From the NCBI GenBank assembly GCA_027319565.1, contig DAHVNA010000004.1, positions 25,522 to 89,521 on the forward strand: DNA of 64,000 nucleotides, in the 5' to 3' direction. The notes beneath the pieces were generated by a model. The model did no database searches and was not told the DNA's origin. It saw only the letters and a program-made list of their open reading frames with translations. The DNA comes from Elusimicrobiota bacterium. Lineage in GTDB: Bacteria > Elusimicrobiota > Elusimicrobia > UBA1565 > UBA9628. The translations under genes and the position numbers were made by a program. Positions 2,743 through 40,216 of the stretch are shown here, piece by piece; the first letter of the stretch is position 1, and each line of letters opens with the position of its first letter.

Positions 2743-2774
2743 AAGTTTTATTCTATCATAAGAGGCGATAGCTT

Positions 2775-4576: not shown

Positions 4577-4616
4577 TAGGCCTTTTGGCGGGGTCTTCTC
4601 TAGGACCTTTGGCCCA
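4577..4616 (+). promoter_or_regulatory. Tandem TAGGnCnnnnGnCC sites upstream of the giant-protein operon
   Basis: taggccttttggcggg (4577) and taggacctttggccca (4601), plus a weaker copy at 4542; TATCCT -10-like hexamer at 4639-4644. Confidence 0.55.
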
Positions 4617-4650
4617 TGCTTTAAAGCCAAAAATGGTTTATCCTAGGAAT

Positions 4651-6183
4651 ATGAAAGAGAAACGGTTTAAGCGTGCATTGGCCTTGATTCTCGCTCTTTG
4701 TTTGGGGCTTTTGTGGCCAGGACAGGCCTATCAGGCTTTAGCCAAGGACGTCGAGGTTGACCCTTTAGTTCAGCCTGTGCCATCTCTTCCCGGGGGCTTA
4801 AACTCAGAGTCTGTCTTGCCCAATCCCTCGGAGAACGAATTTCAATCTTCCCTCTTGCCCCTAGCCTTGCCGGCCTTGGACAAGGAAATTTCCCCGCTGC
4901 CCAATTCCGCCTTGGAAAAAGAGCCTTTGGGCAAGGTTCAAAAAGCGGCAGCCCCCCTATCCAACGCGGGAGAACTGACCGGGAAATTCAATCAGCTTTC
5001 ATCGGTTCAACAGCCAGAGAGTGCGGAACAAAGAGCTCAAAACTCAATTTTAGGGCGTTTAAACTCTCGTCTCTTTGGAAACAAGAAAGCCCCCATTTCC
5101 GGAACCGGAGCTTTTTCCAATAGTTTAAACGCAATCAATCAGCTTTACGACGGCGAAGGCGCGGCTTCTAAAAACCTGCCCCAGGAATCTGTGGCGAGCG
5201 CAAAGGCAGTGGGCGCTTGGCGTTCGGGGCTTAAGAAAGCCGCTCTCATCTCTGGAGCGGCGGGCGCGTCCGCGGCCTTGGCGGTTCCCGCATATGCGCA
5301 AGCCTTGCACCATGTTTCGGCGACTTCCGGCGCGTGGAATTTATTAGCGGCGGGCTGGCCTCTCTTCGCGCGCGGGGCATATTGGGTCAGCATGGTTTTT
5401 GGTTTTATGATGGCGATTCCGGAACTTCATGAGCTGATCAAGAAAAGGAGCTACAACTGGAGAACCTATGGGGTCATTGCGGCCAATTTGATGGTGGGTC
5501 TCATCGTGGCCCCGGCCCAAACTTCGGCGGACAAATTTTTATGGGGTTCGGAGTGTTTGTCGGTTTCCGCGGTTTTGGCGGCGGGAATTATGCTGGCGAA
5601 ATTTCTCCCGAAGGAAAAAACTCGGGAAAAGATTTCGCAGCAGGGCGGTTCTTGGCTCAGGAAATGGTTCGATTCTATTCGCACAGACCGCTCTCTCCAA
5701 ATGACCTTGGCCTTGGCGCCCATTCTCATCGCCTCCGGATTTGGGATGTATTTTGGTCTTGCCGCCTTTATGCCTTCCTTGATTTTGGCGGTTTCACCCG
5801 TTCCATTGTCCTTAATTAGCGCCGGAATTCAGATATTGGTTCAAGGGTTTTACTTGTCTTTATTCGTTCCTGATTTAATGGCGATAAAACGAGGAGAAAA
5901 GCCCTCCGGCTTTGCCCCGGGATTTGTGCTTCTTTTTTGCCTGATCGCCGCCTGCTTTGTTATCTGGGGAGGCACCCAGGCTTTTCAGAATCCGGCCAAA
6001 CACATTGATTTGGTTTTAGTCGCGGCCTCAAACGTGCTCCAGTTCTTGTTTTCTTTCATCACCTACCGCGCGCTTAAACGCCCGGATTCCGGCAAAAACA
6101 CTAAGTCCCAAGATCCTAAGCTGACTGAAAATAATCGAGGAGTTTTTAACGGCGGCCTGATTTCGGTTTCCTGCTACGCATGA
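4651..6183 (+). CDS. Secreted-leader membrane protein with two PQ-loop/SemiSWEET-like repeats
   Basis: Signal peptide, Pro-rich linker, then about 7-8 TM helices; MAIPELHELIKKRS and LFVPDLMAIKRGEKPSG...W...N patterns. Confidence 0.75.
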   Translation: MKEKRFKRALALILALCLGLLWPGQAYQALAKDVEVDPLVQPVPSLPGGLNSESVLPNPSENEFQSSLLPLALPALDKEISPLPNSALEKEPLGKVQKAAAPLSNAGELTGKFNQLSSVQQPESAEQRAQNSILGRLNSRLFGNKKAPISGTGAFSNSLNAINQLYDGEGAASKNLPQESVASAKAVGAWRSGLKKAALISGAAGASAALAVPAYAQALHHVSATSGAWNLLAAGWPLFARGAYWVSMVFGFMMAIPELHELIKKRSYNWRTYGVIAANLMVGLIVAPAQTSADKFLWGSECLSVSAVLAAGIMLAKFLPKEKTREKISQQGGSWLRKWFDSIRTDRSLQMTLALAPILIASGFGMYFGLAAFMPSLILAVSPVPLSLISAGIQILVQGFYLSLFVPDLMAIKRGEKPSGFAPGFVLLFCLIAACFVIWGGTQAFQNPAKHIDLVLVAASNVLQFLFSFITYRALKRPDSGKNTKSQDPKLTENNRGVFNGGLISVSCYA

Positions 6184-9100
6184 TTCCAAAAAAGTTCAAG
6201 AAATTTCTCTGCGCGTTTTTAGCTTTGAGCTTAATCTTGTTGTCTCCGGGAACCCGTTTTTACACCCTTTTAGCCGCCGATACTCCCAAGGAAGACTCTT
6301 CAGATCCCTTGGGAAATCCCCTGTCTCTTCCCAATCAATCCTTGGATCCGTCCGCAGCATTCGAGCTAGGTTCCGAACTTCCTTCGCCCGCGCCTTCCGC
6401 GGCCCCTGTCTTGCCTTTGGCCCCAGGACCCAATCTCCAAGAGACTCAAACAAATAATGAGATCCCGCAAACCAGGCCTCCAATTCCAGCTCAAGCCAGA
6501 CTCGAGGCCTTGCCGCAGGCAAAGGACCAGCCGCCTAAGCAGGTCTCTCAGCCCATGGCCCATTTACAAGAGCAAAACAAACAAAATGAAAAGGCGGATA
6601 GAGAAAGTTTTTCTCCTGAATCCTCCGCTTTGGCCAGCGCGGCCCTTTTTGACGGCGCCGGCAGAATGGGGGGCAGCGGACCGCCCATAGAGCCTCCCGC
6701 AGGTGGGTCTGAAGCGGCTTTGCCTCCGCAATCTCCTAGAGGCCCTCCGGGGGTATCCATTTTCTATGAAAATATCCTCGGCTACCGTAAAGTTGTCGGC
6801 CTCAAACACGATTCTAACCTTTCCCGCCTTCCTCTCAATGCAAAGACGCCCCAGATCATCGATCAAATCTCGCGTCAGTTCCATATATCGCGCGCGCGCG
6901 TTATTGAACTGGCCTCCCATGTCGGCCTTAAAGAAAATTCCCCCAATGCCGAGTGGGATGCCGTCTATTTGGGCCTTCAGAAACTCAATGCCCAGCGCTT
7001 TCAGCATTTTGACGCCCAGAAATATCATCTCGGGTTCCGCCAGATGGCGAATTTGAGCTATGAGACCGGATGGAAAGGGGGGCTTAAGCGATCTTTAGAA
7101 ATTCAAAAACATCTTCTAGGTTTTTTTGCTCGCTTTCCCTACCACCTTTTTGACGTTTTTGTCCTGGGTTACTTCCGGCAAAACATCAGCTATACCTTCG
7201 CTCATTCGACTGAGGATTTCCTAAGTCTTGCCGATGCCGAGGGCGGCTTGGTGGTGGCGACCGAGAACGCGGAGAAGTTTTTCCGCCGGGTTCTGCGCGA
7301 GAGGGCGATATCGGGAAAAGGGGAGACCTTAAGCTCTCGTTTTCTCGCGACTCGTTTGGGGCGGGCGGTGAGAATGTTCGGCCATGTCGCGCCTCTGCCG
7401 CTTCTAGCCTTTTTGAGGCGGCGCTTAATCATGGCCGTCGCTTCGGCGGTCGCGATGGGAATTTTGGGCGCCTTGGCCCCGGGAGTCGCGATTCTGCACT
7501 TGAGTCTTTTATCAATTCCAGTGATGGGCCCGCTTTTGGTCGCGGGCGCCAATAGCTTGCCCGTTTTTATCGCCGGCATTCCCGGTCTTGGGGGAATTTT
7601 CGCGCCGGTCGTGGCTGCTGCCACTGCGGCTTTGATGAAAGATTTGGTTCTCGGACCGCTTTTAAACACCTTCATTCTCTCGACGATTTTTACCTTGCCG
7701 CAATCACTGGATCAGCATCGCCGCCGGCTTGAGGCGGAACATCCCTTGGATTCCATCGGTTGGTCCCAGGCCTTGGCCTCGGCGGTTTTTGCCCGTGAAT
7801 TCTGGAAATTCTTTATTTTGCAGGATCTCAAATTTTTCTTGGGGCTTCTGACGGTGGGGTCCGAGATTCAAGGCATACTTTCTTACGGAACCCAGATTGA
7901 TGCCGGTTTGACTCCGGCTTGGCATGCGGCGACCGGGCATGATTTTCACGGCTTTCACGGGCTTTTTTCGGCTTTTGAAGCTCCGAAGGGTCAAAGCGTG
8001 ATTCCTTTTGGCGGCGCGATCACCTGGGGAAATCTCCTTCTCTACAAGACGGAATCGGCGTTAGGATTTAATCTCTCCGATGCGGTGATGCATGGCTTAA
8101 ACTCTCACACCGCCGGGGCTTCGGCTATAGCGGTGACCAGGGCCGCGTCGGCTCCCGGCAAACCCTTGCCGTTTGATCCCACCCTTTACAAAAAATCTCC
8201 CAAGGAAGTGGAAAAGCGCATTGCTGAGCTCGAAAAATCGGCCGGGAATTTTAAAGATGAGATGGCCTCGGCGCGGGCGCAAGAGTTAAAGCTCAGGAAA
8301 GACTTGGCCTTAGTGCAAAAAGACGAGGCGGGTCTTAAGGCCCAAAATAAGCCTTTGACCGCGACGGAACTTAAAGCCTATCAGGCGCAGTTGGAAAAAT
8401 TAAAACAGGCTCAAAACCAGCGCTATATCCGCTCAAAACTATCGGAAAACCGTGATCTGAACCATCCCCAAAGCGAGGATGAAAGGCTTCATCGCTTGGA
8501 AGAGAAGCTCAACGCCTTGGCTTCACAAACACGGGAAGACCGCATCGGCTATGCCGAGGACAAGGAAATCCATCCGGGAATTTTGAAATCAGTGTTAAGC
8601 AACCTGGATCAAAAAATTGGAATTGACACGGGTAAATCTAAAGACTCTATCTCTCAGGTCAACCCGAAGACTCAGAAAAAAATTGAAGACTTGGTTAAGG
8701 AAATCAAAACCTTACGGACTAATGCCGCGGCGCAGATGAAGATGAGAGACGCGACGACAAAAGTGCTTGAGGTGGTCTCCAAGGCGCGGGATCAGGCCCT
8801 CAAAAATCGCCGGAACGGGCAGGACATGATGAATTTCATTCAAAGCCTTTCCCAGGTTTCGGCGGTGATGGATTTCGCCCTGGGGCTTAGAGAAATTAAC
8901 GCCGCTCAAAATGCCATTGGCGGCATGGAAAACCTGTTAAATACTAATATTCAAAACATCAATCAGTCTCAGGCCTTGTCCCAGCAAAACCAGGCGGCGG
9001 CTCAACAGGCGGAGTCTAATTTACCGGCTTGGCAGCAGGAAGTGACGCAGCAGACCCAGGCCGATCAGGCCCAACAAAATCAACTTTCTTCCGATTTTAC

Positions 9101-12100
9101 CGAAGCCTCTTCCGCCGTTCAAGTCTTTACCTCGATTCAAAGCGTTTTGCCGTCTTTGATGGGGACCATCGCCTCTCATGAGGGAGTGGCGAGCGGAAGT
9201 TTTGACGCGGAGGCGCAGGCTTTGGCGTCCAAATTCCAACTTCGTTTATCCGAATTAGGCCAAGTCTCTTATTGGCGTACTAATGGAAATCCCAATGATC
9301 CGTCGGCTTTTTCGCTGAAAGGATTTAAAAATATCCTTTCAGAGGTTCAAAGCAATCTTCAATTGGCGCAAAATGGTCTTAGTGAGATTCAAACCGCTCC
9401 GGTCAATGCCTGGGCCCTGATCATTAAAGATGTTCCGGGGGGACCGGGAATTTCCAATTCGATGAGTTTGTCCGAGGTTTTAAGCGCGAGAAAATCTTAT
9501 TGGGAAGGGCAGATGCAGACCTTCCAGCAAGATCTTAACTCGGTTCAAGCCATGCTGGACCCGAACAATCAGACGATGCTGACAGATGAGTTTGGGAGAT
9601 CTTATCCGCAGTCTCTTCCAGTTTGGGAATCCCAAGCCAGTCAGACCTTAAACCAAGCGCAATCTTCCATTAATTCCATCACCTCTCAGATGGATCAATT
9701 GTCTTCCCAGATCACCCAAGCCGGAGGCACGGCCCTGCCCCAGCTGTCGGGGCTTTCCCTTGCCCAGCTTCAGACTGCGGTTCAAAGCTATGGGACGGCC
9801 CTTGAAAACATCCAGATTCCCAACAATGGAACCCCGCAGGCCTTTCAGGCTTCTCTGGACTTAGTCAAGCTTGCTTCTCTTTTGCCGCAAGCGGCATGGC
9901 TGGTCATCCAGGGAAGCGAGGCGCAGACGACCGTGACCACCATTCAAAACGCGCTCCAAAATACCGTTCCCCAGGCCCAAAGCGCGATGAAACAAGCGGT
10001 CAACATGGTGCAAAATATCATTAACGACGTGGATGCAGATCAGGCCTTCGTGGCGCAATTTCCCAGCGCGAACGCCAATCCCCAACCCTCTCAAGCCCAA
10101 GAACAGGCCCTGATTAGCCGCAAGGAAAATCTGCTCCAAAACGACATTATCACTCCTTTGACCGCCATTCAAGGCGCGGTGGAAAATACCCTGATTCCCT
10201 ATCAAGAGTCTTCCATTCAACAGGTGTCCCAGAACGGGGATTATCAAGAGCTTTTTAGCGCCGAAAATTCGCTGATTACCCAAACCATGCAGTTAAACGA
10301 TAAGACAATTCCCTGGGGACTCATCTCTTTTGGCGGCAGTCCCGGAAATACGAGCGGGAGTTTGGCGAGCCTGCAAAGCTGGCAGACGAATTTTTCAAAT
10401 CTTCTTCAAACGGTGACAACCGATAAGACCCAGGTCGATCAAAGACAAGATCCGAATTTCAACGGAAATGAGACGGTCGATTATTTGAAAGACAGTAATT
10501 ATCCCGGCGGCGGGCCTTATAGCTTGCCCAAAAAAATTACGCTCTACACCGCCGAGATGAATCAGCGCGCCCAACAAATTAACACTCAAGACGCGCAAGT
10601 CAATCAAATCCTGACAAAAATCCAGGCCCTGTCGGGTGGAAAGTATAATCTCTCGGCCTATCAATTGCCCACGAATGTTCCCGCCAATCAAGCGGGATAC
10701 AATCAAATTAACGGCTTGGTCAATAATGGAAATTTGACGAATTTGGCCACCCAGCTTCAAAATATCGCCAAGCAAGCCGGTTCGGCGTCTTCAATTAATG
10801 TCGGTGGGGGGGGCTTGGCAGTTAAGACCGGAAATCAGCCGTCGCCGACTGTTTCAAACGCGCAAGAGCTCGCTCTCTTGGCTTTGGATGCGGCTAAAAT
10901 TTTAGCGCCTTCTCCCGGAAGCAGCCCTAATTCTCCGTCGATTTCTTTCTCAATTGCTCGCTTTCTTTACTCCTATTCGACTGTTCAAAGTTCGCAACAG
11001 GAACTCGCGACCGAAATTCCGCAGGCGGAAAAATTCCTGACCGACGCGATTAACGCCTTAAATAACGCCCAAGCGCAATTAAAACAAGACCAGGCCTATA
11101 TCAACTCCGGGGGAAATAGCCCGCCGACCAACACGGTCTATCAAAATCAAATCGCGATGCTGAACTCTCTTCAGTCGGTTCTTCAAGAGGGAATGGCTTT
11201 TTTTAATCTCAAGATCAATACCTATGACCCCGAATCCTTGGGCACGGTCAACGAAGTCGCGACCTATTACAACGCTTTGGCTAATCAAGTTTACGGTTCA
11301 GGGAGTACCGTCGATCAAGGGGATCTCACGGCAATGAATTCGATGATGAGCGCCCTTCAAAATACGATGAACGGGCTTAATCAGACCAAATCAGAGCTTT
11401 TGTCTTGGATGGGACAGCTAAACAGCCCTTATGACAGCGCGCTGCGGAGAACCTCGGACGCGATTTCCCAGATTCAAGACGATACGCGCAAGGTGCTTGA
11501 ATCCAATCACAAATGGACCAAATTAAAAAAACAACTCTCGCGCGCGGACCAAATCCTTAAGGCGGATATGGATTTAATTCAGGATAAGCAGGGAGAGTTG
11601 ACCCATTTGATTGGCAATTTGCATGACGATGGATGGGACCGCTTGCCCAATCATATCAAGAAAGAAGTCGCTTCCCTTCACTTAAGCGATTCCGGGTGGG
11701 GGATGGGGCTTAACTCTTCTTCCGGAGCTTCGGCTCTGGTCATCAAAAAATCGAGTTTCCCGGATTTCGTCCACAATATTCTCTCAAGCTTGTCAGGAGG
11801 CCAAAATGCCTCGTCGGCCGATATTGGATCTTTGGGGCAAAGCATTTTGTCTAATCCTCAAAATATTTCCCAGTTGATTCCTGGGGCGCAGATCATGAAC
11901 CTGGGAGATTCAGCGGATGGGTTTTATCTCGTCTATCAGACCGGGTTTGGCGTTCCTTATGGTCTCAGTTCGACGGAACAAGTGACCTTGGGAAATGTCG
12001 CCCATGTGATGGGAAGTAATTTAAGCGTGATGGCATATGATACCTATGCTCCGCCCGAAACCGGCGGGGCTTCAAACGCTCCGTGGGGAGATAAGGGTAT

Positions 12101-15100
12101 CGGCGTTCAGGTCGAGACCTTGCGCGAAAACGACGTCAATTATTTTGAGGCCATCATTCACCACGATATTCTGGACGTTCCGCCCAACATGTCGTTTGCC
12201 TCTCAGGCAAACGAGTCGCGGCTTCTTCTCTTCGATGATTATGCCCTTCTTTTGATGAATGGAAAGCTTTATGTCGGCTTGTCCGGTTTTGGAGACGCGG
12301 CGGCTCAAAATTCCGCCAATCAACCTTATTATTACGGCGCGAACGCTAAGACCTCGATTCAGCTGACTCCGGTGATGAGCTTAAACGCCGATCAGCAGGC
12401 CTTGTTCGCCAAAGACCCGCGGCAATTTTTCGAGACCGCCAATCTCGATTTTACCGGTCTTGATCCGAGTCTGAACCAAACCTTCGACATCGCCGCGCAT
12501 GGAGCGAGCGCGAACTTCTATGAAACCAAGGTCGGACCTAAGTTTGACGTGGCTTCTCTTCTTAAACAGGCGGGGGTGGTTTCAAAAAGCGACAATAATC
12601 CGTTCACGGTTGATCTTTACTATGCCAATTACGCCGGGACTTACGACATTACGCAGCAAACCTTGGGCACGACCATTTTAAAGGGATTCGCTATTTATGG
12701 CCAGGATGATTCAGGTAAGCGCGTTCCCATTGTTAATATCACCAATACCGCGACCGGAGAACTGGGACAACAATATAATATCGCCATCGATCAGCTTTCG
12801 GTCGAGCTTCCCCAAAATGGAATTGTGTTTAGCGCCGAGGGCCAAATGCTGGGGCCGGCCGACGCCTATTATGCGCAGATCGGTAAGAAACTCAATGGAC
12901 ATTCCGATGTGTCTATCGGCTACGGTTCCCCGTTTGTGGGATACAACAATCGCTTATCCTTGATGTTTAACACTTCGGCGAGCCTCTCTCAGCTTTGGAA
13001 TGACGTGACCCGCAGCGCTTCCGAGGATTTAAACGGCGGCAAAGCCCTCAAAAACTATCAAAAGCGGATGACTGATTTCCTTAAGCCTCAAAAAGGCCAG
13101 AAAGAGCTCAATGAACTTAAATCGGTTTTCGCAAAAGATGTCGGCAGAAGACTGATCGAACAAAAAATCGGGACCTTGGATCACGATATTAAGGATTTAC
13201 GCTCGGCCGGCGCCATTTTAGACAATGTCAAGGTCATCGGAGACGCCGGCTTTGTCTCGGGTCCGGTTTCAAACGATCCCGCGGAACTTGCCGCGACCGG
13301 CGGATTTATGACCGGGACGGAAACGATGATGACCTTGAGCAAGACCCAAAAAGAGCTCTTAGACAGCAAGGTCGTTTCGCTTTATAAGAACGGGTTATTG
13401 CTCCAATCTCGTTTGGTTCAATTGACTAAGGATTGGGAGGAAAATGCCCTTCAGATCGTCAAGGCGAGGCTGGCAGTTGAGAGAGCGACGTTTCTTTTGG
13501 AAAATTCCTCCTCCGTTATTGAAAGAGAAAAGGCCAATACGCGCCTAGCGGCGGCTCTTGAAAAGTTAGGCGAGGCGCGCGTTCGCTATAACATCATGGC
13601 CGGCAAAAATCCGGATTCCGCCACTCCGTTTGACGATTTAAATCTCGCGGATGTCCAAAATTTAGTCAAGGAAATTCACTCGCTTGTAGCCGCTCCCGAT
13701 CGCTTAAAGAAGATTCTTTCGTCTTTGGATAAAACTTCTCTTAAAGACCGCATCGGACAAGACCGTTTTAACATCATGGACTGGATTCCGTTTGTGGATC
13801 AATTCACCTTTGGAATTGGAACTCAAATCCAGGATTTAATGGCGGGGCAGATTTTTGGCGTAGGTGGAACCCTGAGGCTTCCTTTCTACGATCCATCGTC
13901 TAAAGACAAGAATAAAAGCTATGTCTTGAAAAGCGCGGCCGATATCAAAGAGATGGAAGATATCCATTCTCAATACCGCTTGTTGGCTAATAACGAGAGA
14001 GAAGAAGCCGCGATTTGGGGACAGACGGCGCAGCAGATGACGAGCGCTTTGCCCCAAACCGGAAGCGATTTAGAATTCGCGCTTAAGGCTTATCGCAACG
14101 GCTTGATTTCAAGAGATGAGTTGCGCCAAGCGATTAATTTGTGGAGTCTCAATGCGCGGGCGACAGTCAATTCTCAATCCCGTGCCGCCGCCGCCGGCGC
14201 CTGGGCCGAGATGGATAGCGCGGTGGGCGAAAAACCTCCCGCGCAGGCGCCGCCGATCAGCGTCTCCAATTTGGGAGACGCCATTCAAACCGCTTTTAAG
14301 AATTCATCCCTGGAGTCTTTGGCTCTTCATCAGGAAGAGTTTCAGGCTTTGGCCAAAGCCGATAATCATGTGACCCAAAAATTCTGGATCAATTTGATGA
14401 TAGGGGCGGATCTGACCGCAACCGGAACCGGGTTTTTACCTTCTTTCGGCTTTACCGGATTTCCGATTTTGCCGATACCGGGTGCGCGTTTTCAGCCGGA
14501 AGAACTTCGCGAACTCCAAGTTTCATCGGATAAAGGCAAATCCGCCTATTACGGCGCCCTGGAATCGAAGCTGAAAATCGAGACCGCTCTTCAGATGTAT
14601 CAGGATGTGGTTCAAGCCAAAACCGCGCAATCGGTCATCGCCCAAGTGGATCAGAAGGTGATTCCGGATCTGAATGAGAAGCTTTCCCAGGCCGCAACTT
14701 CGGGCGATCGGGCGCGGATGAGCCAAATCAAAAAGGAAATTTTTAACGCCAAGTTGTGGCGCGCCCAGATGGTTTTAATTAATGACGAGGCCCATTCGGC
14801 GCTCAATGTTTTGATGGGGCGTCCGGCGGATTCCGGGCTGTCTATTGATCTGTCTCCCGAAGAAGCTTACCAACAACTTGAAGAAACGCTTAAAAATCAA
14901 AATTTGCCCGACATTCAAAAGACCATTTTTGACGCGCGCGTTCAAGTGGCCGAGGCTTACCAGAAGATGGTCGACAAAAATTTGAAGGTCCAGGAAGTTT
15001 CCGCCGATCCGATTTCTCTGACGGCTCGAACCATTGGGCGCTTAATCAACGCTTTATCAGAAGAAGATTCGGGTCGCGCCGATAAAGTGATGGCGGCGCG

Positions 15101-18100
15101 CTTGAGGCTTTTGATGGAGGAAAGGCAAAAAAATTCTTTTGATTCCAGTTTGGCCAGCCTTCGCGCGCGCAGCCAGGCGCGACTTGAGATGATTGATTCC
15201 AATATTGAGCGATTATCCGAAAAGGGAGATCCTTTGAGCTTGGCTCAGGCGCAAGAACTAAAAGGAGAAAAAGCGGTCATTAAGGCTTCTCTTCTCAGTC
15301 TCGCGGCCAAGCCTTCGGAAAAGGCTAATTCCGCTATTCTTCCAACGAGTTTCGCGGAACTTAGGCGCCGCCTGATTGACAAAGAAGAGGCCATGGTTCG
15401 CCCTCCCCGCCTAGATTCTTTGCCTTCGGCTCCCGCGCCCGGTTTGGAAAAGGCTCCGGCGGAAATGTTCATGCGCTACTTTTACGCCCAGCAAACCCTG
15501 GATGAAACTCCGATTAATCGCGGATTTTTGGAACCGTGGATTGAATTGCGGCTTAAAAATCACGATACGCCGCAAGCGGATTTAATCGCGCTGGCCAAAT
15601 TATCCCAAGACCGGGCTAATCGTTTGGATAAAATCGCACGGGAGCGCGCAGCGGCTTTAGCGGACGCGGAATTGGCGGATTTTACGGAAAATGTCCGGTT
15701 CTTGAACTGGGCAGAATCTCATCACAATGGAAAAGACAAGGCTGATTGGGACGACATGATTCATTCTATTCGACAAAAGGTCTTGTCTCAATCGGAAGAA
15801 ATCTGGGCGCTTCTCAATCTTCCAAGAGCGCAGGGACAAAGCATGGAAGAGCGCTTGCGCCTTCTGTCAAATTTAGTTCCGGAGTTTTCTGGAACGAAAT
15901 CCTCCGGTGAGTTATCCCGCTTGCTTAAGGAGATTGATTCTTCCGAGGGGAAAGCGCGCATAGCCCGCCTGTTGGGCCTTGACGCTTTTGGAGCTGGCAA
16001 TTCAAAAGACCTCTTCATGAACCAAATCCGCGCCGATGTCTTGTCGGAACATATGAGTTATCAGGGAATTACTCCGATAGCCGCCTTTGGAATTTTCCGC
16101 GGCACCCCCGTCTTTGGCGGATTTTTAGAAGCCCCCGATCCGCAGGAAATCGAGCGCGGGTTGACGAATATTTTGTCGGATTCCATCCGGGAAGAGTTAA
16201 AGGCGCAGGGGCAGTTTAAAAAGCTTGAGATGGTTCTCTATACTCAAATGGCGCGCGTTTCCGGCGGGATGAAAGAAGTTCAGGCCGATAGCCGACTATT
16301 GGCGGCGGCGACTGCGGACTTAAAACAAAAGGAGTGGACCTCCGATCATAATCCCGATTCGCTCAAGGACAAGAAAGATTTCTTGGAGGCAAAGAAAAAT
16401 TTGGTCGCGGCTTGGGGAAACCTCGTCAAAGACTCGGCGGATTTGAAATCTAATTTCGTTTCCCTGGTGGCGGAACTCAAGGCTTTGGGGCAGAAAGGAA
16501 ACTCTAAGTCTCCCGCGGCCTCTCTTAAGAATCTCAGTTTGGGGGATGAGCGCGTGCTGGAGGATCATGGACTACCGTCCACTCCTTCGGAACGCGGGCT
16601 CTTGGGCTATTGGACCGACCGCATGGAAGATCCTGATTTCATTGCCCAGCAAGACCGCTATCTTGAAGGCTTGGGAATTTCCCGGCAGATGATTGATTCT
16701 GTCGATTCCGTCGCTCGGCTTTACCGCACCGCTATTCGAGATTCCAAGGACGTAACGGCGGAAGACTTTTCCTCTCAAGAAAGGCTGCGCCTCTTAGCGC
16801 AAAACGACGCGCGCGGAAAGAGAAATCTTTTGATATTCGGGCTTTCCGCCTTAAAGACTGAAATTGAAAAAAAGGATCCGCAGTTAGGGTTTTTGCGGGG
16901 CGATTTGGAACGGCAATTGAGCCTGAGCGATCAAAAGCGGACGGAATACGCCCAGGCGGCCTTGCAGCTTCGCGATGCGTATTGGCACGCGGTTTCTGTT
17001 TCTCCGCGGGCCGAGGCCGCTTTCAAGGCTCTTGAAGCGGATCATCAAAAGTTGGTTCTGGCTAAGGATGCGTTGATTGATTCCTATTTCGCTTCGCCAT
17101 TGAAAAATGACGAGTTTATCTTGAGAGATGGGCTTTTGGATGATTATCTCAAAGCCCAGCAGGTTTTTGACGAGGACATAATCCGAACCTTGGATTTAAA
17201 GGAAGTTCAAGGCAACGCCGAGCTGATGCGCACTCTCGATGCCCTTTATGACGCTCGAAAGAGCCTCAATCGCCAGATCGACTTTAAAGAGGCGGGGCGT
17301 GGAATTCTCGCTTTAGACGCCTTGGTCATGCTTGAGAAATCTCGCCTTTTTGACGAGAGATGGGAAGGCCGTTCGGAGCGCTCCATTGACGCCGTCTCTC
17401 TTAAGATTGCGGATTTGGAAAGCAAAAAAGCCGATTGGCTCAAGCACGGTTCAAAACTTTATCCGCTCTACGCTCAAACCCGTATAGATAAGAACGGCCA
17501 TCGTCTATGGACAACGGAGAGTTGGCTTGGCCAAGATGAGTTAAAAGAGCGGATGAATCTTAAGGACACGGACAAGGATAAAATCATTGAAATTAAAGGG
17601 CGCTATTTCCTTAAGTCGGATTCCAGCGTTGAATTTCTCGGCGGGACGGACGCTTTGGAAAGGCGGAAATTGGAGGCTCAAAACGGAATGAAGAGCGATG
17701 AGAGCGCCATCGCTTTGGCGGAACGGCTGGGGAAATATGATTTTGCCCTCGAAAACGGGGAAAATGGCTATTCTGTTAAAGATCTCTTCGGCCCGACGGG
17801 GCTTTTGAGCCAAGGCAAGGTGCTTTTCTTTGAGGCTCCTGATCCAAAAGACCCGGGCCGCTTGCATTACCGGCTCCCGGCTTTGGCGGCCTGGGCGCGT
17901 TCTCCGGAGCGATATGAAATTTATGTTTATACGGGTAAAGGGGATTTGTCAACGGATAAATTTCAGACCCTTGAATCCTTGAAGTCTTCTCCGCTTAAAG
18001 GCGATTTTAATCGAGTTTACCTTTCCAAAAAAGGAGCCGTGGATTTGGCCGATTTCTTTGCCCAGCGCCGCCGCGCGGAGTTAAGAGCGGGATATGCGGA

Positions 18101-20159
18101 ATTAAAACTTGCCGGATATGGTTTCGCGCGCAATGACAAGGGAGAGATTGCGGAGGTTTATTTAAGCCGCGATGATTTTAACGCGGCAAAAAGAGCGTTC
18201 TCTGATTCCAATTCCGGCCTTAAAGAGGCCCAAGTTCGTCTCTCGAAAGCGCAGAAAGATCAGGCGGAAGCGGCAAAAAAAGAAAAAGAAATTTCCCGGA
18301 AAATGCTGGAAGCCGTGCGCGTTTCTAATGATATTGCGGGAAGTCTTAAAGCCCAGATCCTGAAAAAATATCCAAGAAAGCATAAGGAGTTGCCGGCGGA
18401 TTATTCCAAAAGATTGGACGAAAAAATTAAAAAAGCCTTGGCCGCAAACGGAGAGTATAAAGACGCCCAAAAGCGCTCAAACGTTATTTCAAAAAAATTA
18501 AACAAGGCTCGTGATGATTTAAAACTTCAGTCCGCTGTCTTGACAACCGCTCAAAAGCAGGTTAAAAATGCGGAGCAGATTCAGCGGCATTCTAAAACCT
18601 GGAGCCTTTACCACAGCCGTGATTTAATTTTAGGCTTGGACTCGGATGGCAATGTGATTCGCGCCCAGGCTTCTCCGGTTTACGGAAAATCTGTTCTGGA
18701 TGAACAATTAGCCTCGGAAAGAATCGCCGAGTATATCAAAGGGCCGCTTTATGCGGTCACGATGGATTCCGAGGGGCGCTTTAAGAATTATTACACCAGT
18801 CCCTCTAAATTGGAAAAGGCGGCCAAGAGTTGGGTCTTAAAGTCAAAGACTATCGATGGCGAGAAAAACGTGTTTGAGTCTAAAAACCATCTCAATCCCG
18901 CCTTGCGCATCAGCCATTACGAAGAGAATATCAACGGGAAAAATTATGCCGTTCTTCTCAATCAGCGTTATCTGGAAGAAAGCGCGAAAAATGTCTCTTC
19001 CCATCTTCCCTTCAAAAAATATTGGGGCGCGATGCCTTGGCGCTGGGGGAGTTTGCTCATGGAAGTCCCGCGCGAAATTGTCGGATTTCCCATCGAATGG
19101 GGCGCCGGCCGCGACCCGAGGTTCCAGCATTATCTTGGGCGCGTGGCGATGTATAAGGCCGAAGGCGGCGAGACCGAGCATCATGGGTTTTTCCGAAATG
19201 TGGCCGGAGCTTTGGATGTTCTCAATTTCTTGCCCGATCCGGTCACTCCTTATTATGATTTGAGCCAGTTCCCGCCGGATTTGCGCGTCGGGCAGTCCAC
19301 GATCATGCCCGGAGAAAGCGAGGCTTCTTTGAGCGGTCGCTATAAAGACAAGAATATCCATTTAGGGGCTCGCTTTTTGGCGCGACTGCTTCGCTACTAT
19401 CAGGAAGACATCAATGCCGCGCGTTTAAGAACCCTGGCCCATTTCCGCGGCGGGGTTTCTGAGTTTGTGATTAGCGAGATGCAGGGGCGGGAAAAACCAT
19501 ATGAAGAATCTCAAAAGAAAGGGGGCGTTGGAGAAAAAGCCCTGGTCGAGGCGTTAAGCGAGAAGGACTTGGGATTATCCCCTAAAGCCGATGGTTCCGG
19601 GGAAATCGTTTTGTCGGGAAAACCCGATGATATTTGGGTTAACCGCGCCCAAAAAACGGTTCATATCGACGCCGGCGCCCGGGAGTATCAAGCTGATTCC
19701 AAAGAAGCTCACGATTATGTCAACCCGGTAGAAAAAGAGCTTCCGTCCAACAAAAACGATTTGGCGTCTCTTAAGCTCAAGAGCGTGGAAATTGAACGGA
19801 TGAGAAAGGCTAGCGAGGTTTTGGATTCCAACGCTAGAGTTGCGGCTGAGAGTCTTCACAAAGACGTTTATGGACGGGAGATTCGGATTCTTTCCCAGAG
19901 AGAAGTCGAAGATCGCCTCCGAGCGGACCGGGCTCGCGAAAAGTCGCTTCAAAAGCGAATTTCCTGGTGGCGGCGCTATGTCCGTCGTTTGGAAAAACTA
20001 GAGCCGGCGCTTCAAGTTTCTTTTGTCCCCCATGCGATTTTATCTCTCAAGGACAAATTTTTATCCTACGCCGCCAAGATTATGCTTTTCTTTGGAACTC
20101 TCGCGACGGTTGCGGGGGCGGTTTTTAAGAAGAAAAAGCGGAGAAAGAATGTTCTATAA
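6180..20159 (+). CDS. Giant 4659-aa secreted/envelope protein (hydrophobic helices, coiled coils, Q/N-rich segment, beta-barrel-like block, tandem TolC-like repeats, C-terminal TM anchor)
   Basis: Uninterrupted 13,980-nt ORF with ATGA overlap; signal peptide; C-terminal TM helix + KKKKRRK; domain calls made by eye. Confidence 0.9.
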   Translation: MIPKKFKKFLCAFLALSLILLSPGTRFYTLLAADTPKEDSSDPLGNPLSLPNQSLDPSAAFELGSELPSPAPSAAPVLPLAPGPNLQETQTNNEIPQTRPPIPAQARLEALPQAKDQPPKQVSQPMAHLQEQNKQNEKADRESFSPESSALASAALFDGAGRMGGSGPPIEPPAGGSEAALPPQSPRGPPGVSIFYENILGYRKVVGLKHDSNLSRLPLNAKTPQIIDQISRQFHISRARVIELASHVGLKENSPNAEWDAVYLGLQKLNAQRFQHFDAQKYHLGFRQMANLSYETGWKGGLKRSLEIQKHLLGFFARFPYHLFDVFVLGYFRQNISYTFAHSTEDFLSLADAEGGLVVATENAEKFFRRVLRERAISGKGETLSSRFLATRLGRAVRMFGHVAPLPLLAFLRRRLIMAVASAVAMGILGALAPGVAILHLSLLSIPVMGPLLVAGANSLPVFIAGIPGLGGIFAPVVAAATAALMKDLVLGPLLNTFILSTIFTLPQSLDQHRRRLEAEHPLDSIGWSQALASAVFAREFWKFFILQDLKFFLGLLTVGSEIQGILSYGTQIDAGLTPAWHAATGHDFHGFHGLFSAFEAPKGQSVIPFGGAITWGNLLLYKTESALGFNLSDAVMHGLNSHTAGASAIAVTRAASAPGKPLPFDPTLYKKSPKEVEKRIAELEKSAGNFKDEMASARAQELKLRKDLALVQKDEAGLKAQNKPLTATELKAYQAQLEKLKQAQNQRYIRSKLSENRDLNHPQSEDERLHRLEEKLNALASQTREDRIGYAEDKEIHPGILKSVLSNLDQKIGIDTGKSKDSISQVNPKTQKKIEDLVKEIKTLRTNAAAQMKMRDATTKVLEVVSKARDQALKNRRNGQDMMNFIQSLSQVSAVMDFALGLREINAAQNAIGGMENLLNTNIQNINQSQALSQQNQAAAQQAESNLPAWQQEVTQQTQADQAQQNQLSSDFTEASSAVQVFTSIQSVLPSLMGTIASHEGVASGSFDAEAQALASKFQLRLSELGQVSYWRTNGNPNDPSAFSLKGFKNILSEVQSNLQLAQNGLSEIQTAPVNAWALIIKDVPGGPGISNSMSLSEVLSARKSYWEGQMQTFQQDLNSVQAMLDPNNQTMLTDEFGRSYPQSLPVWESQASQTLNQAQSSINSITSQMDQLSSQITQAGGTALPQLSGLSLAQLQTAVQSYGTALENIQIPNNGTPQAFQASLDLVKLASLLPQAAWLVIQGSEAQTTVTTIQNALQNTVPQAQSAMKQAVNMVQNIINDVDADQAFVAQFPSANANPQPSQAQEQALISRKENLLQNDIITPLTAIQGAVENTLIPYQESSIQQVSQNGDYQELFSAENSLITQTMQLNDKTIPWGLISFGGSPGNTSGSLASLQSWQTNFSNLLQTVTTDKTQVDQRQDPNFNGNETVDYLKDSNYPGGGPYSLPKKITLYTAEMNQRAQQINTQDAQVNQILTKIQALSGGKYNLSAYQLPTNVPANQAGYNQINGLVNNGNLTNLATQLQNIAKQAGSASSINVGGGGLAVKTGNQPSPTVSNAQELALLALDAAKILAPSPGSSPNSPSISFSIARFLYSYSTVQSSQQELATEIPQAEKFLTDAINALNNAQAQLKQDQAYINSGGNSPPTNTVYQNQIAMLNSLQSVLQEGMAFFNLKINTYDPESLGTVNEVATYYNALANQVYGSGSTVDQGDLTAMNSMMSALQNTMNGLNQTKSELLSWMGQLNSPYDSALRRTSDAISQIQDDTRKVLESNHKWTKLKKQLSRADQILKADMDLIQDKQGELTHLIGNLHDDGWDRLPNHIKKEVASLHLSDSGWGMGLNSSSGASALVIKKSSFPDFVHNILSSLSGGQNASSADIGSLGQSILSNPQNISQLIPGAQIMNLGDSADGFYLVYQTGFGVPYGLSSTEQVTLGNVAHVMGSNLSVMAYDTYAPPETGGASNAPWGDKGIGVQVETLRENDVNYFEAIIHHDILDVPPNMSFASQANESRLLLFDDYALLLMNGKLYVGLSGFGDAAAQNSANQPYYYGANAKTSIQLTPVMSLNADQQALFAKDPRQFFETANLDFTGLDPSLNQTFDIAAHGASANFYETKVGPKFDVASLLKQAGVVSKSDNNPFTVDLYYANYAGTYDITQQTLGTTILKGFAIYGQDDSGKRVPIVNITNTATGELGQQYNIAIDQLSVELPQNGIVFSAEGQMLGPADAYYAQIGKKLNGHSDVSIGYGSPFVGYNNRLSLMFNTSASLSQLWNDVTRSASEDLNGGKALKNYQKRMTDFLKPQKGQKELNELKSVFAKDVGRRLIEQKIGTLDHDIKDLRSAGAILDNVKVIGDAGFVSGPVSNDPAELAATGGFMTGTETMMTLSKTQKELLDSKVVSLYKNGLLLQSRLVQLTKDWEENALQIVKARLAVERATFLLENSSSVIEREKANTRLAAALEKLGEARVRYNIMAGKNPDSATPFDDLNLADVQNLVKEIHSLVAAPDRLKKILSSLDKTSLKDRIGQDRFNIMDWIPFVDQFTFGIGTQIQDLMAGQIFGVGGTLRLPFYDPSSKDKNKSYVLKSAADIKEMEDIHSQYRLLANNEREEAAIWGQTAQQMTSALPQTGSDLEFALKAYRNGLISRDELRQAINLWSLNARATVNSQSRAAAAGAWAEMDSAVGEKPPAQAPPISVSNLGDAIQTAFKNSSLESLALHQEEFQALAKADNHVTQKFWINLMIGADLTATGTGFLPSFGFTGFPILPIPGARFQPEELRELQVSSDKGKSAYYGALESKLKIETALQMYQDVVQAKTAQSVIAQVDQKVIPDLNEKLSQAATSGDRARMSQIKKEIFNAKLWRAQMVLINDEAHSALNVLMGRPADSGLSIDLSPEEAYQQLEETLKNQNLPDIQKTIFDARVQVAEAYQKMVDKNLKVQEVSADPISLTARTIGRLINALSEEDSGRADKVMAARLRLLMEERQKNSFDSSLASLRARSQARLEMIDSNIERLSEKGDPLSLAQAQELKGEKAVIKASLLSLAAKPSEKANSAILPTSFAELRRRLIDKEEAMVRPPRLDSLPSAPAPGLEKAPAEMFMRYFYAQQTLDETPINRGFLEPWIELRLKNHDTPQADLIALAKLSQDRANRLDKIARERAAALADAELADFTENVRFLNWAESHHNGKDKADWDDMIHSIRQKVLSQSEEIWALLNLPRAQGQSMEERLRLLSNLVPEFSGTKSSGELSRLLKEIDSSEGKARIARLLGLDAFGAGNSKDLFMNQIRADVLSEHMSYQGITPIAAFGIFRGTPVFGGFLEAPDPQEIERGLTNILSDSIREELKAQGQFKKLEMVLYTQMARVSGGMKEVQADSRLLAAATADLKQKEWTSDHNPDSLKDKKDFLEAKKNLVAAWGNLVKDSADLKSNFVSLVAELKALGQKGNSKSPAASLKNLSLGDERVLEDHGLPSTPSERGLLGYWTDRMEDPDFIAQQDRYLEGLGISRQMIDSVDSVARLYRTAIRDSKDVTAEDFSSQERLRLLAQNDARGKRNLLIFGLSALKTEIEKKDPQLGFLRGDLERQLSLSDQKRTEYAQAALQLRDAYWHAVSVSPRAEAAFKALEADHQKLVLAKDALIDSYFASPLKNDEFILRDGLLDDYLKAQQVFDEDIIRTLDLKEVQGNAELMRTLDALYDARKSLNRQIDFKEAGRGILALDALVMLEKSRLFDERWEGRSERSIDAVSLKIADLESKKADWLKHGSKLYPLYAQTRIDKNGHRLWTTESWLGQDELKERMNLKDTDKDKIIEIKGRYFLKSDSSVEFLGGTDALERRKLEAQNGMKSDESAIALAERLGKYDFALENGENGYSVKDLFGPTGLLSQGKVLFFEAPDPKDPGRLHYRLPALAAWARSPERYEIYVYTGKGDLSTDKFQTLESLKSSPLKGDFNRVYLSKKGAVDLADFFAQRRRAELRAGYAELKLAGYGFARNDKGEIAEVYLSRDDFNAAKRAFSDSNSGLKEAQVRLSKAQKDQAEAAKKEKEISRKMLEAVRVSNDIAGSLKAQILKKYPRKHKELPADYSKRLDEKIKKALAANGEYKDAQKRSNVISKKLNKARDDLKLQSAVLTTAQKQVKNAEQIQRHSKTWSLYHSRDLILGLDSDGNVIRAQASPVYGKSVLDEQLASERIAEYIKGPLYAVTMDSEGRFKNYYTSPSKLEKAAKSWVLKSKTIDGEKNVFESKNHLNPALRISHYEENINGKNYAVLLNQRYLEESAKNVSSHLPFKKYWGAMPWRWGSLLMEVPREIVGFPIEWGAGRDPRFQHYLGRVAMYKAEGGETEHHGFFRNVAGALDVLNFLPDPVTPYYDLSQFPPDLRVGQSTIMPGESEASLSGRYKDKNIHLGARFLARLLRYYQEDINAARLRTLAHFRGGVSEFVISEMQGREKPYEESQKKGGVGEKALVEALSEKDLGLSPKADGSGEIVLSGKPDDIWVNRAQKTVHIDAGAREYQADSKEAHDYVNPVEKELPSNKNDLASLKLKSVEIERMRKASEVLDSNARVAAESLHKDVYGREIRILSQREVEDRLRADRAREKSLQKRISWWRRYVRRLEKLEPALQVSFVPHAILSLKDKFLSYAAKIMLFFGTLATVAGAVFKKKKRRKNVL

Positions 20160-37475: not shown

Positions 37476-37490
37476 AGTTTGATTCCTCTG

Positions 37491-37545
37491 TGGCCGCTCT
37501 CCAACAGACTTGGAAGCGGCACTTCCTCGCCCATGCTCGGTCGGA
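37491..37545. repeat. ~55-bp hairpin repeat; second copy at 34137-34194, so the two copies flank cusA in direct orientation
   Basis: tggccgctctccaacagacttggaagcggcacttcctcg versus tggccgctccccaacagactttggaagcggcatttcctcg. Confidence 0.85.
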
Positions 37546-37573: not shown

Positions 37574-37580
37574 GGTGTAG

Positions 37581-37654: not shown

Positions 37655-37715
37655 TATGCCGGTTTCCGGCGGATAGCGACTTTCCCTCCAAAGTCAGCGG
37701 TCGTTGTCCATCCCC

Positions 37716-37850: not shown

Positions 37851-38978
37851 TCACATCTTCATCCCGGGCATGGAGCCCATTGAATCCGAGGGAGCGGCGT
37901 TTTTGGAGTCTTTGCCCGGTTGAGCGAATGATTGGATCGCGGATTGAAATTGAGATTCCGCGTCGATTAAAAAATTAGCCGAAGTCGTTACCGTTTCTCC
38001 GGGACTTAAACCCGATAAAATTTCGTAATAGCCCCCGGCTTTTGTTCCTAACTGGATTGATCTCGGATCAAGAGTCCCGTCTTCCCTAGCCACAAAAACG
38101 TATTGTTTCTCCCCGGTGTTTAAAACCGCGCCTTCCGGCACGCTCAAATGCTCTCCCAGCGGAGATTGAATTGTGACATCCACATAGGTTCCGGGTTTGA
38201 GCAGTCCCAAGGCATCATCCAGCCGGGCTCTGACGCGCGCGGTTCGAGTGGTGGGGTTGATCACTGGATCTATTGAAAGGACATTTGTCGTCCAGACTTT
38301 TCCCGGGAGAGTTTGGGATTTAATCTTCACGGGAATTCCCGGATGAATGAATTGCAGGTCATATTCATAAACATCCGCATAGACCCATACCGCCTGTCCG
38401 CGTTTTCCCACTAAAAGCCCTTGAGCGAGACTCGGATTCTTGACCCAGGCGGAAACCTGAGCGGGAGACAAACCTAAGAGTTTGAGTTTGAAGGCCGATG
38501 CTTTTTCCATGGAGCGCGCCCAATTCGCTTCGGAATTTTGAGAGCTTTTTTTGACTGAGTTCAAGGCTTCAAGGGCTTGGCGGTATTCTTCGATTGCCTC
38601 ATAGAGTTGCGGGTCATAAGCGATGCGGCCGGGAGCGCGGATATTTTTTGTGAGCGCCCGCATTTCGGACTTTCCATAGGTGACGCCGATTAATTGCCGC
38701 CTTTGAGAGGAGATTAAGATGGGGGCTCTCTCGGGCACATTGCTGTTGCCTTTTTTCATTTTCTCCATCGGTCGTAAATTCATGCCGCAGATGGGGCACT
38801 GGCCCGGATGATTTCGAATAATCTGATGGTGCATCGGGCATTGGTAGAGAGTTTTTGGGGCGGCCTTTTTTGAAGAGGCGGCAATCTCAATTGAAGCGTT
38901 GCGGCTTTTGAAGTAAATGCCGGCGATAACGGCGAGGAAAAGAGATATCGCGAAAAAGAATAATTTTTTTTGTTTCAT
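37851..38978 (-). CDS. cusB: CusB-like RND periplasmic adaptor with heavy-metal-binding domain
   Basis: YQCPMH...PGQCPICGM, IDPVINPTTRTARVR, ANFLIDAES, Met-rich tail. Confidence 0.93.
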   Translation of the reverse strand: MKQKKLFFFAISLFLAVIAGIYFKSRNASIEIAASSKKAAPKTLYQCPMHHQIIRNHPGQCPICGMNLRPMEKMKKGNSNVPERAPILISSQRRQLIGVTYGKSEMRALTKNIRAPGRIAYDPQLYEAIEEYRQALEALNSVKKSSQNSEANWARSMEKASAFKLKLLGLSPAQVSAWVKNPSLAQGLLVGKRGQAVWVYADVYEYDLQFIHPGIPVKIKSQTLPGKVWTTNVLSIDPVINPTTRTARVRARLDDALGLLKPGTYVDVTIQSPLGEHLSVPEGAVLNTGEKQYVFVAREDGTLDPRSIQLGTKAGGYYEILSGLSPGETVTTSANFLIDAESQFQSAIQSFAQPGKDSKNAAPSDSMGSMPGMKM

Positions 38979-40216
38979 GGGTTTGTCGCTCCTTTTTTGA
39001 AAACGGGGAGCGGGCCGCCGATGGCGCGCTCCAGTTTCGCTAAATGCTCGCCGTAAAGCTCTACTTCCTCTGGATATTTGAGTTGGGCGTCTAAAAGAGA
39101 CCTCACGTCTTCGGAAAGTTTTGCGAAATCCGTTCGGCCCGTTTCATAGCCTTTCTCCGCGATTTTGAGGGCGCCGTTTGCCAGAGGGATAATCTCGTGT
39201 TCATAACTGAGCGCTAAATCTCGGTGCAAGTTGACTTCGATGAACTCCGAATGGATTTGACGAAGGATCTCATTTTGCGCATCTTCTGAAGCCGCTTCAG
39301 CCTCTTGTTTATGGGCCTTGGCGGCTTTAAGCAAAGATTCCTGCTTCCAAAACCAGAGCGGGATCGTGAGATTGACCCCGTAAACGCTTTCCTGCATCGT
39401 CGCGACGTAGGGCCGCGCTTCTTGTGTCGCCGAAAACTGGAAATCCGGCGCAAAGCCGAGGCGATTGAATGCCACCATCGCTTTTGCGTGCATGATTTCA
39501 TGAAGAGCCAATAGATAATCGGGGCTTATCTTCTCCGCGATCGCGTCCAGTTCTTGGGGGGTGTAGTCAATGGCGTTGGGGTCAGAGGGATTTAAAAGAT
39601 CCCATTGAGTTCCTGCGGGTTTGGCCAAAAGCGCGTTTAAAGATTCTTCCTCAACTAATGATTCCTGTTCGCGTTCAAAAGCGGCATTTTTAATTTGGAT
39701 TTCTGAGGCTTGAGCGGAGAGGGCTTCATCTGTCGTCGCGCGTCCGGAGGCGACCGATGCTTGGGCGACTTGGGCGATTTCTCGCAAAATATCGGCGTCT
39801 TTTCTAAGGACGGAGCTTGTTTCTTTCAAGAAAGAAACCCGGTAATACTCAATTGCGACTCTTGACGCAATATCAAGACCCATGGCGCGATATTGTTGGT
39901 AAGCGATCATCGCCTCATGATGTTTCATTTTGGCGCTTTGAGAGAGCTTTCCCGGAAACGGCACGTTTTGCTCAATAGACCAGTAGTCCGCGCTTTGGCC
40001 GCCTTGGAAATTCATGCGCTGAAAACCAATCAGGGGGTCTTCCCATGTCGCCGCCGCCGGCACCTGGGCCATCAATGATTTCCAATGTTCCTTGGCCTTA
40101 AGTATGGCGGGATTATTTTTGAGCGCGATCTCAATGAGAGAATTAAGATCCCGCCGCGGAATCTGGCTTGCGCGGGCCGAAGAGACTGAAAACAGCAAAA
40201 TTAAAATTTTAAACAT
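38975..40216 (-). CDS. TolC/CusC-family outer-membrane efflux protein
   Basis: ALKNNPAI, EQNVPFPGKL, NLTIPLW, YETGRTDF, LERAIG; first gene of cusCBA. Confidence 0.93.
   Translation of the reverse strand: MFKILILLFSVSSARASQIPRRDLNSLIEIALKNNPAILKAKEHWKSLMAQVPAAATWEDPLIGFQRMNFQGGQSADYWSIEQNVPFPGKLSQSAKMKHHEAMIAYQQYRAMGLDIASRVAIEYYRVSFLKETSSVLRKDADILREIAQVAQASVASGRATTDEALSAQASEIQIKNAAFEREQESLVEEESLNALLAKPAGTQWDLLNPSDPNAIDYTPQELDAIAEKISPDYLLALHEIMHAKAMVAFNRLGFAPDFQFSATQEARPYVATMQESVYGVNLTIPLWFWKQESLLKAAKAHKQEAEAASEDAQNEILRQIHSEFIEVNLHRDLALSYEHEIIPLANGALKIAEKGYETGRTDFAKLSEDVRSLLDAQLKYPEEVELYGEHLAKLERAIGGPLPVFKKGATNP

Follow-up and report, generated by a model that had tools for sequence, protein, structure and literature searches.

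A giant envelope protein of Elusimicrobiota with a predicted single-chain TolC-like ring and a second outer-membrane barrel

The window analyzed here is a stretch of 64,000 nucleotides from an Elusimicrobiota bacterium (NCBI GenBank assembly GCA_027319565.1, contig DAHVNA010000004.1, positions 25,522 to 89,521), and the subject of this work is a single gene on its forward strand that encodes a giant envelope protein, P0001. The middle of this protein contains a module (residues ~2320-3435) that resembles three copies of the outer-membrane channel protein TolC in tandem, and that can be divided into three units of two half-repeats each, so that unit 1 comprises half-repeats 1 and 2, unit 2 comprises 3 and 4, and unit 3 comprises 5 and 6. 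The parts of the gene are given below; percentages are from the profile-profile comparison (hhalign) with stand-alone TolCs.

6180..20159, + strand: gene of the giant envelope protein P0001, 4659 residues, an intact open reading frame
6180..6278, + strand: putative Sec-type signal peptide, residues 1-33, basic then hydrophobic, judged from sequence and hydropathy
6765..8195, + strand: optional N-terminal domain, residues 196-672, a hydrophobic run of membrane-like helices by hydropathy, in the longer (type A) copies only
8196..11759, + strand: long coiled-coil-like stalk, residues ~673-1860, with generic coiled-coil matches only
11925..12983, + strand: predicted 18-strand outer-membrane beta-barrel, residues 1916-2268 (AlphaFold2, predicted local distance difference test score (pLDDT) 76.8)
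13140..13598, + strand: half-repeat 1, N-type, with helix, hairpin and two long helices (AlphaFold2; 63-72% to the end of the TolC N-half)
13644..14225, + strand: half-repeat 2, C-type (AlphaFold2; 95%; Pfam family OEP above its cut-off in relatives L007 and L044)
14271..14813, + strand: half-repeat 3, N-type (AlphaFold2; 91-92%)
14856..15299, + strand: half-repeat 4, degenerate, with a single strand and shorter helices (AlphaFold2; halves 3 and 4 together fit a whole TolC chain structurally)
15009..15059, + strand: conserved amphipathic helix occupying the position of half 4's second strand, a candidate gate, seam cover or plug
15351..15812, + strand: half-repeat 5, N-type by position and end motif (AlphaFold2 secondary structure)
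15843..16484, + strand: half-repeat 6, C-type (AlphaFold2; 39-52% to the TolC C-half; OEP matches in relatives)
16512..19739, + strand: conserved C-terminal region of no recognised fold, with no useful match in the PDB or Pfam
20070..20156, + strand: hydrophobic helix with a basic tail at the C-terminus, characteristic of type A copies, a candidate inner-membrane anchor or sorting signal

The resemblance to TolC becomes apparent through the relatives of P0001, which are needed because the single-sequence test fails: the Pfam family OEP (PF02321) has no match on P0001 or on its three units taken singly. Among 81 aligned relatives, OEP is the commonest Pfam family in unit 1 (9/81 at E ≤ 0.1, best 4.4e-7) as well as in unit 3 (12/81 at the same threshold, best 2.6e-5), and its cut-off is passed by three of the 40 relatives that were scanned over the whole region. 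The OEP homology of the module is detectable via the profiles of relatives, with P0001 itself falling below the Pfam gathering score. Comparison of profiles by hhalign with 39 stand-alone TolCs gave 97.2% for unit 1, 93.9% for unit 2, and 66.2% for unit 3, against no more than 0.8% for controls with reversed columns and no more than 3.1% for 21 windows taken elsewhere in the protein. The N-half of TolC is the part matched by unit 2 and the C-half the part matched by unit 3, which is the register expected of three protomers, and half 6 matches the C-halves of stand-alone TolCs. Used as a probe, the region profile draws weak matches in 32 distant genomes; all 16 of the proteins fetched from these are stand-alone ordinary OEP proteins, matched via halves 2, 3 or 6. 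The top matches of the region in the ESM Atlas are TolC-named clusters, which score under its recognition threshold. A sequence-only reading of the window had proposed three tandem TolC-like units on the strength of recurring motifs. All 13 of the motifs quoted for the giant and all five quoted for an ordinary TolC elsewhere in the window are present where they were placed, and the proposed unit borders (13000-14230, 14260-15310, and 15340-16490) agree with those of the model (13140-14225, 14271-15299, and 15351-16484). The three units themselves are borne out by profiles in N/C register and by a structural model with six half-repeats, unit 3 being the weakest. The expectation of OEP matches fared less evenly, since it fails on P0001 and its units but holds for relatives in units 1 and 3.

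The structure of residues 2261-3447 (1187 residues) was predicted with AlphaFold2 from an 81-sequence alignment and no templates. The best model has a pLDDT of 78.9 and a predicted template modelling score of 0.76, with the five models ranging from 71.7 to 78.9 in pLDDT. Its six repeats each combine short helices with a hairpin and a pair of long helices, and unit 3 also shows the protomer pattern of two half-repeats. Foldseek gave ten matches of the model at E ≤ 0.001, every one a channel of the TolC family, and the highest-scoring structural matches by VIA are OprM, CusC, and TolC (OprM with Z 15.4, root-mean-square deviation (rmsd) 3.7, and 309 residues aligned). Halves 2 and 3 (model residues 280-622) together fit a whole TolC chain with Z 14.9-15.4 (7akz_A, Z 14.9), and halves 3 and 4 (436-783) loosely fit the whole TolC chain 9tg4_A (Z 9.2, rmsd 4.8, 312 aligned), suggesting that in the model the half-repeats are set side by side, as expected for a ring. 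In a wide structural search, model residues 88..1063 fit the porin 8xua (Z 9.0, rmsd 3.7, 153/210) and residues 91..1059 fit the designed barrel TMB10 (8uzl, Z 8.5, rmsd 3.3, 130/143), and therefore the hairpins of all three units form one barrel in the model; weaker barrel fits were obtained with Tsx, NanC, and AIDA-I. The idea of a pseudo-trimeric channel within one chain thus stands insofar as the hairpins of the three units superpose on closed single-chain barrels, with closure itself being predicted only. The barrel on a helical tunnel that the sequence-only reading expected is likewise present in the model, but with 11 strands instead of 12, since one of the strands in half 4 is replaced by a helix. 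This helix is 16-17 residues long in 81/81 relatives, has a helical moment of 1.57 against a strand moment of 0.61, and is also visible by eye in three very distant giants (L201-L203). The average character of the first strand in half 5 is polar, which would fit a cover by the half-4 helix. The long helices of the module are unequal, with median lengths of 48-70 residues.

Directly upstream of the module lies a second barrel, which, in its pairing with the TolC-like module, is a feature absent from the sequence-only reading. The Foldseek matches of residues 1916-2268 are membrane barrels, and the structural matches comprise Wzi (Z 16.1, rmsd 5.0, 268 aligned), OpdQ (Z 15.3), OccAB1 (Z 15.0), and PelB (Z 15.0). 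The mean column identity of this barrel is 61%, the highest among the regions aligned, and its top eight strand ladders by covariation join sequence neighbours; no sequence-profile match was found for it among PDB profiles or in Pfam. In the model, a helical stretch of about 50 residues lies between strand 18 and half-repeat 1. By prediction, from two separate models (residues 1916-2268 and 2261-3447), the chain thus contains more than one membrane barrel.

The module was found in 85/101 genomes of the order to which the genome belongs (50/59 among those of good quality) and not found in 16/101. Of the genome-collection loci, 70/77 are annotated as Elusimicrobiota and the other seven are labelled only "bacterium"; two of the 70 are Endomicrobium, which we take to belong to the phylum. 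A sample of 401 genomes from the phylum contained 98 with a match, comprising 62 of the same order, four further genomes with giants, and 32 with weak matches in short frames. The 82 matches among 1.84 billion representative sequences are giants or shorter pieces. A separate search for a stand-alone module of 621-2099 residues gave one partial match among the best 8000 candidates scored. Full-length relatives of residues 2261-3447 share 28-40% identity beyond the closest genomes, and the length of the module is constant (1061-1135 residues in 81 relatives). Among relatives of at least 3000 residues, the domain core is colinear in 47/47, truncated ends apart, and the order of stalk, 18-strand barrel, and unit 1 is fixed in all of them; unit 3 is kept in 45/47, the remaining two stopping before it. 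There are two forms of the protein, a longer type A, which has the N-terminal hydrophobic domain and usually the C-terminal membrane helix, and a type B of ~3850 residues without both, and many genomes have two module matches. Some members of the family depart from this pattern. Some relatives of 5300-5900 residues (L130, L133, L142, L150, L155, L156, and L159) have long additional N-terminal regions without a Pfam match, and similar long relatives have additional hydrophobic helices in such regions. The very distant giants (L201:3490-14844, − strand; L202:3509-14959, − strand; L203:5386-13254, + strand) come from another family of the class, and retain the barrel and the TolC module but match no other tested profile and differ markedly in their N-termini. 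The giant is broken into several frames in two nearly closed genomes (G040:C1; G066:C1 and C2); sequencing errors are the likely cause.

The remainder of P0001 is less readily described. A Pro-rich linker directly follows the signal peptide, and the N-terminal hydrophobic domain, which is present in 33/47 long relatives and includes a Gly/Ala-rich run, has no PDB match by sequence-profile search. The C-terminal region contains a coiled coil of variable length near residues 4010-4120. Both the stalk and the C-terminal region are probably located in the periplasm. They were each considered as further TolC repeats, a possibility that was rejected by profile comparison (hhalign to TolC ≤3.1%). Sequence-profile searches of the PDB with the N-terminal domain, the stalk, and two C-terminal blocks gave nothing informative, Pfam found no families on the N-terminal parts of 24 relatives, and Pfam and PDB profile searches found no recognisable domain outside the two barrels.

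The genes around the module were compared at 78 loci including the window, with flanks of at most 10 kb that are often cut by contig ends, so that the comparison covers near neighbours only. Type A giants recurrently have a DnaA-C-domain gene upstream (18 loci) and a sensor kinase (19 loci) and a LysM/FecR protein downstream; in L132, L147, L155, L164, and others, the giant lies between the DnaA-C-domain gene and a dCache/HAMP/PAS sensor kinase with a LysM-FecR gene. The window is without this DnaA-C, sensor kinase, and LysM-FecR context. Type B giants recurrently neighbour helicase, ClpS, reductase, and TPR genes. No SecA-like, peptidase, carbohydrate-binding or type II secretion genes were found among the sampled neighbours. 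Two unannotated genes flank the giant in the window. The first (4585-6183, + strand) encodes a signal peptide, a Pro-rich stretch, and several membrane helices, and overlaps the start of the giant by four bases; its cluster is found upstream of the giant in 9/78 loci. The second (20185-21354, + strand) encodes a secreted-looking protein with a hydrophobic helix and basic tail at its end, like the giant, and adjoins the giant only in the closest relatives.

Further along, an ordinary heavy-metal-type efflux operon with TolC, adaptor, and pump occupies 34269-40216 on the reverse strand:

34269-37475, − strand: resistance-nodulation-division (RND) pump
37851-38978, − strand: membrane fusion protein (MFP), the adaptor, with a metal-binding domain
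38975..40216, − strand: ordinary stand-alone TolC (Pfam OEP, E 6.5e-31)

The sequence-only reading had called the last of these a bona fide TolC, in agreement with its OEP score. A functional link between the giant and this operon was rejected, as the two are 14 kb apart and on different strands, the operon has its own TolC, and no such genes were seen beside the relatives of the giant. TolC genes of unusual build were encountered in other genomes. An open frame of 1056 residues, about twice the usual TolC length, contains two OEP matches (G095:C32:23108-24097, + strand), and in two Elusimicrobiota genomes a TetR helix-turn-helix and a full TolC occupy a single stop-to-stop frame of 644 and 630 residues, respectively (L214:1469-3400, − strand; L215:8-1897, + strand), which may be a fusion or two in-frame genes.

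By computation, then, P0001 carries a real and conserved feature: its TolC homology is in register, its model shows six half-repeats and a single barrel, a second barrel accompanies this one, and the domain order is fixed. The reading favoured here, that residues ~2320-3435 form a single-chain TolC-like ring, is given a probability of roughly 0.75. Several results weigh against it, the failed Pfam test among them. At the level of sequence, half-repeats 4 and 5 show no TolC signal (hhalign 0.3% and 1.1%), profiles of half against half detect no internal repeat (best 52%; units 55%), unit profiles searched against the 2114 frames of the genome do not rank its own nine TolCs first, PDB sequence-profile searches with the whole region, unit 1, and unit 3 found no TolC, and the ESM Atlas has no usable match for unit 3. 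At the level of structure, the barrel matches are middling (Z 7-9), with ranges that mark only the first and last aligned residues, and the half-4 seam is modelled with a pLDDT below 50. Unit 3 is the weakest part: its fold is taken from the whole-module model only, its helices matched generic bundles (Z ≤8.7), and no TolC chain has its best structural match there, in searches that report one alignment per chain. Nor did covariation recover the closing strand ladder, which ranked 81 (antiparallel) and 47 (parallel) of 110 in one run and 286/406 in a second; the alignments had 120-182 rows, which is too shallow for testing closure, and about half of the top covarying pairs look like noise. The top pair joins the first strand of half 3 with the last strand of half 2, across the border of units 1 and 2, and the fifth joins helices of half 1 and half 6. 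Ring closure is accordingly a prediction of one model that covariation did not confirm. As regards function, probes made from the window's RND, MFP, and TolC found no match in 81 loci, no RND or adaptor occurred among 58 sampled neighbour frames (unlinked partners being possible), and the chain contains no motor domain.

How such a ring might arise and act can be put as follows. Three ancestral TolC protomers, or six half-repeats, would have fused and then diverged. The chain would be exported by Sec, and both barrels would enter the outer membrane. There the six half-repeats of the one chain may join up as an asymmetric pseudo-trimer, in which ~11 strands form a barrel standing on a helical tunnel and an amphipathic helix marks the seam left by the missing strand. 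The TolC-like ring would then sit beside the protein's own 18-strand barrel, while the N-terminal stalk (~1,200 residues) and the C-terminal region (~1,100 residues) that flank the barrels would provide a built-in periplasmic scaffold, and type A copies would additionally be pinned to the inner membrane. P0001 would thus act as a stationary duct through the envelope that supplies its own scaffold and, in its helices, a substitute for the adaptor protein; its likeliest task would be the export of a large substrate. We infer that the ring really closes, along with its membrane topology, the openness of the channel, and the direction and substrate of transport. That the ring is single-chain and also serves as a conduit is about an even proposition. 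More tentative, and rather less probable than not, is the wider notion of a one-polypeptide trans-envelope machine, in which a single chain of 3,800-5,900 residues would do the work of a multi-gene system for secretion or import across most of one Elusimicrobiota order; equally tentative are its parts, namely an asymmetric TolC tunnel whose seam is gated by a helix, an additional pore of 18 strands, an adaptor-like periplasmic stalk, and the inner-membrane domain of type A.

The same observations can be read differently. The single-chain ring may be real but non-conducting, a plugged structural post by which the giant ties the outer membrane to the inner one or sets the distance between them. 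The barrel could be blocked or narrowed by the half-4 helix, no transporter was found among the neighbours, type A has membrane anchors at both ends, and the coiled coil varies in length; yet it is the anchor parts that are dispensable (the N-terminal domain was not found in 14/47 long relatives, a few of them partial) and both barrels that are always kept, and the 16 genomes of the order in which the module was not found are easier to reconcile with accessory machinery than with a tether that the cell cannot do without. This possibility is judged unlikely, and survives better than the others. It is also conceivable that the six half-repeats form an open arc, which either needs another giant molecule for its closure or joins the 18-strand sheet in a much wider barrel. 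The odd strand count would be explained in this way, closing ladders were unseen in covariation for either barrel (for strands 1 and 18 of the 18-strand barrel, rank 92/153), the two barrels were modelled separately, and the rmsd to known 18-strand barrels is ~5 Å. Each part alone, however, fits closed barrels over most of the target, strand 18 and half 1 are held apart by the intervening helix, and the closing pair of a hybrid barrel (strand 1 with half 6) ranked 404/406, making an open arc quite improbable.

A self-contained contact weapon or adhesin has also been considered, in which the 18-strand barrel exports the stalk, the hydrophobic N-terminal domain is a tip that inserts into the membrane of another cell, and the TolC module is a basal duct. 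A Gly/Ala-rich hydrophobic run on a long helical stalk would suit this arrangement, and the accessible part of one report (10.1101/2023.11.21.568195) connects giant proteins from related phyla with predation and adhesion, but an even-stranded barrel keeps both of its ends in the periplasm by established topology, the barrel has 18 strands and sits mid-chain, and no toxin, adhesin or autotransporter domain was found in P0001 or in the scanned parts of its relatives, so that this arrangement is very improbable. Least probable of all is that only halves 1-3 (or 1-4) derive from TolC and that unit 3, a region of helices and hairpins with no kinship to it, was forced into the ring by AlphaFold: the silence of halves 4 and 5 and the lack of ESM Atlas and TolC structural matches for unit 3 would be explained, but OEP is the top Pfam family in that very unit, half 6 is in register with the TolC C-half and picks out stand-alone TolCs, and the model was built without templates.

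Should the single-chain ring be correct, its significance lies in symmetry. Channels of the TolC type have been described as assemblies of three separate chains, a build that imposes three-fold symmetry; a single-chain form occurring in nature would reveal what becomes of the fold without that constraint, with a lost strand and unequal helices, and would provide a scaffold for studying each protomer position separately. It would also pose a question for outer-membrane assembly, namely how two mid-chain barrels are inserted in a membrane-anchored chain. At the least, the module offers a first structural handle on one unannotated giant protein of Elusimicrobiota.

Elusimicrobiota are rich in huge unannotated proteins, and the Omnitrophota-type giants have SecA-like, peptidase, and carbohydrate-binding domains and lie near a type II secretion locus, according to the accessible parts of two reports (10.1101/2023.11.21.568195; PMC11573180), which contain no mention of TolC or efflux. 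P0001 shares with the giants described there a great length, a signal peptide, and membrane helices, whereas SecA, peptidase, and carbohydrate-binding domains were not found in it. The accessible part of a further giant-protein paper (PMC12057145) describes no such module, and in that of another (10.64898/2026.03.19.712371) TolC is a separate gene between giant genes. Full-text literature searches, with most subscription papers outside their coverage, yielded no description of a single-chain TolC. The 18-strand barrel shares its fold with Wzi, the OpdQ/Occ porins, AlgE, PelB, and BcsC (Z 14-16, rmsd 4.4-5.0), at an identity of 7-10%; because many barrel families score alike, tied within 1-2 Z, no family or substrate can be assigned to it. 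Classical (type Va) autotransporters have a 12-strand barrel at their C-terminus, whereas the barrel of the giant has 18 strands, lies mid-chain, and is accompanied by no autotransporter match in Pfam.

The closest comparison is with the TolC or outer-membrane factor (OMF) family itself (OEP, PF02321; OprM, CusC, TolC, and VceC). In the accessible text of PMC8277102, the TolC half-repeat is a hairpin with long helices, two halves make a protomer, and the barrel stands on a helical tunnel; known members are trimers of separate chains that contribute four strands each to a 12-strand barrel (PMC8277102; 10.1101/268029, likewise in its accessible part). The module of P0001 has the same plan of half-repeats and barrel on tunnel, but is predicted to build it from six strongly differing halves in one 4659-residue chain, with 11 strands and a helix, and no adaptor or transporter neighbour was found for the giant. 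In place of a trimer of separate chains of ~450 residues, P0001 is a single frame, and because that defining trimer fails, it is not filed as an ordinary TolC/OMF member. Multi-barrel outer-membrane proteins, as far as the accessible part of a survey goes (10.1101/2021.02.17.431615), have two barrels per chain and arise by fusion of units that normally oligomerise; the words TolC, OEP, and Elusimicrobi do not occur in its main text. Proteins of this kind string together barrels that are each complete, whereas in P0001 several partial protomers would make one barrel.

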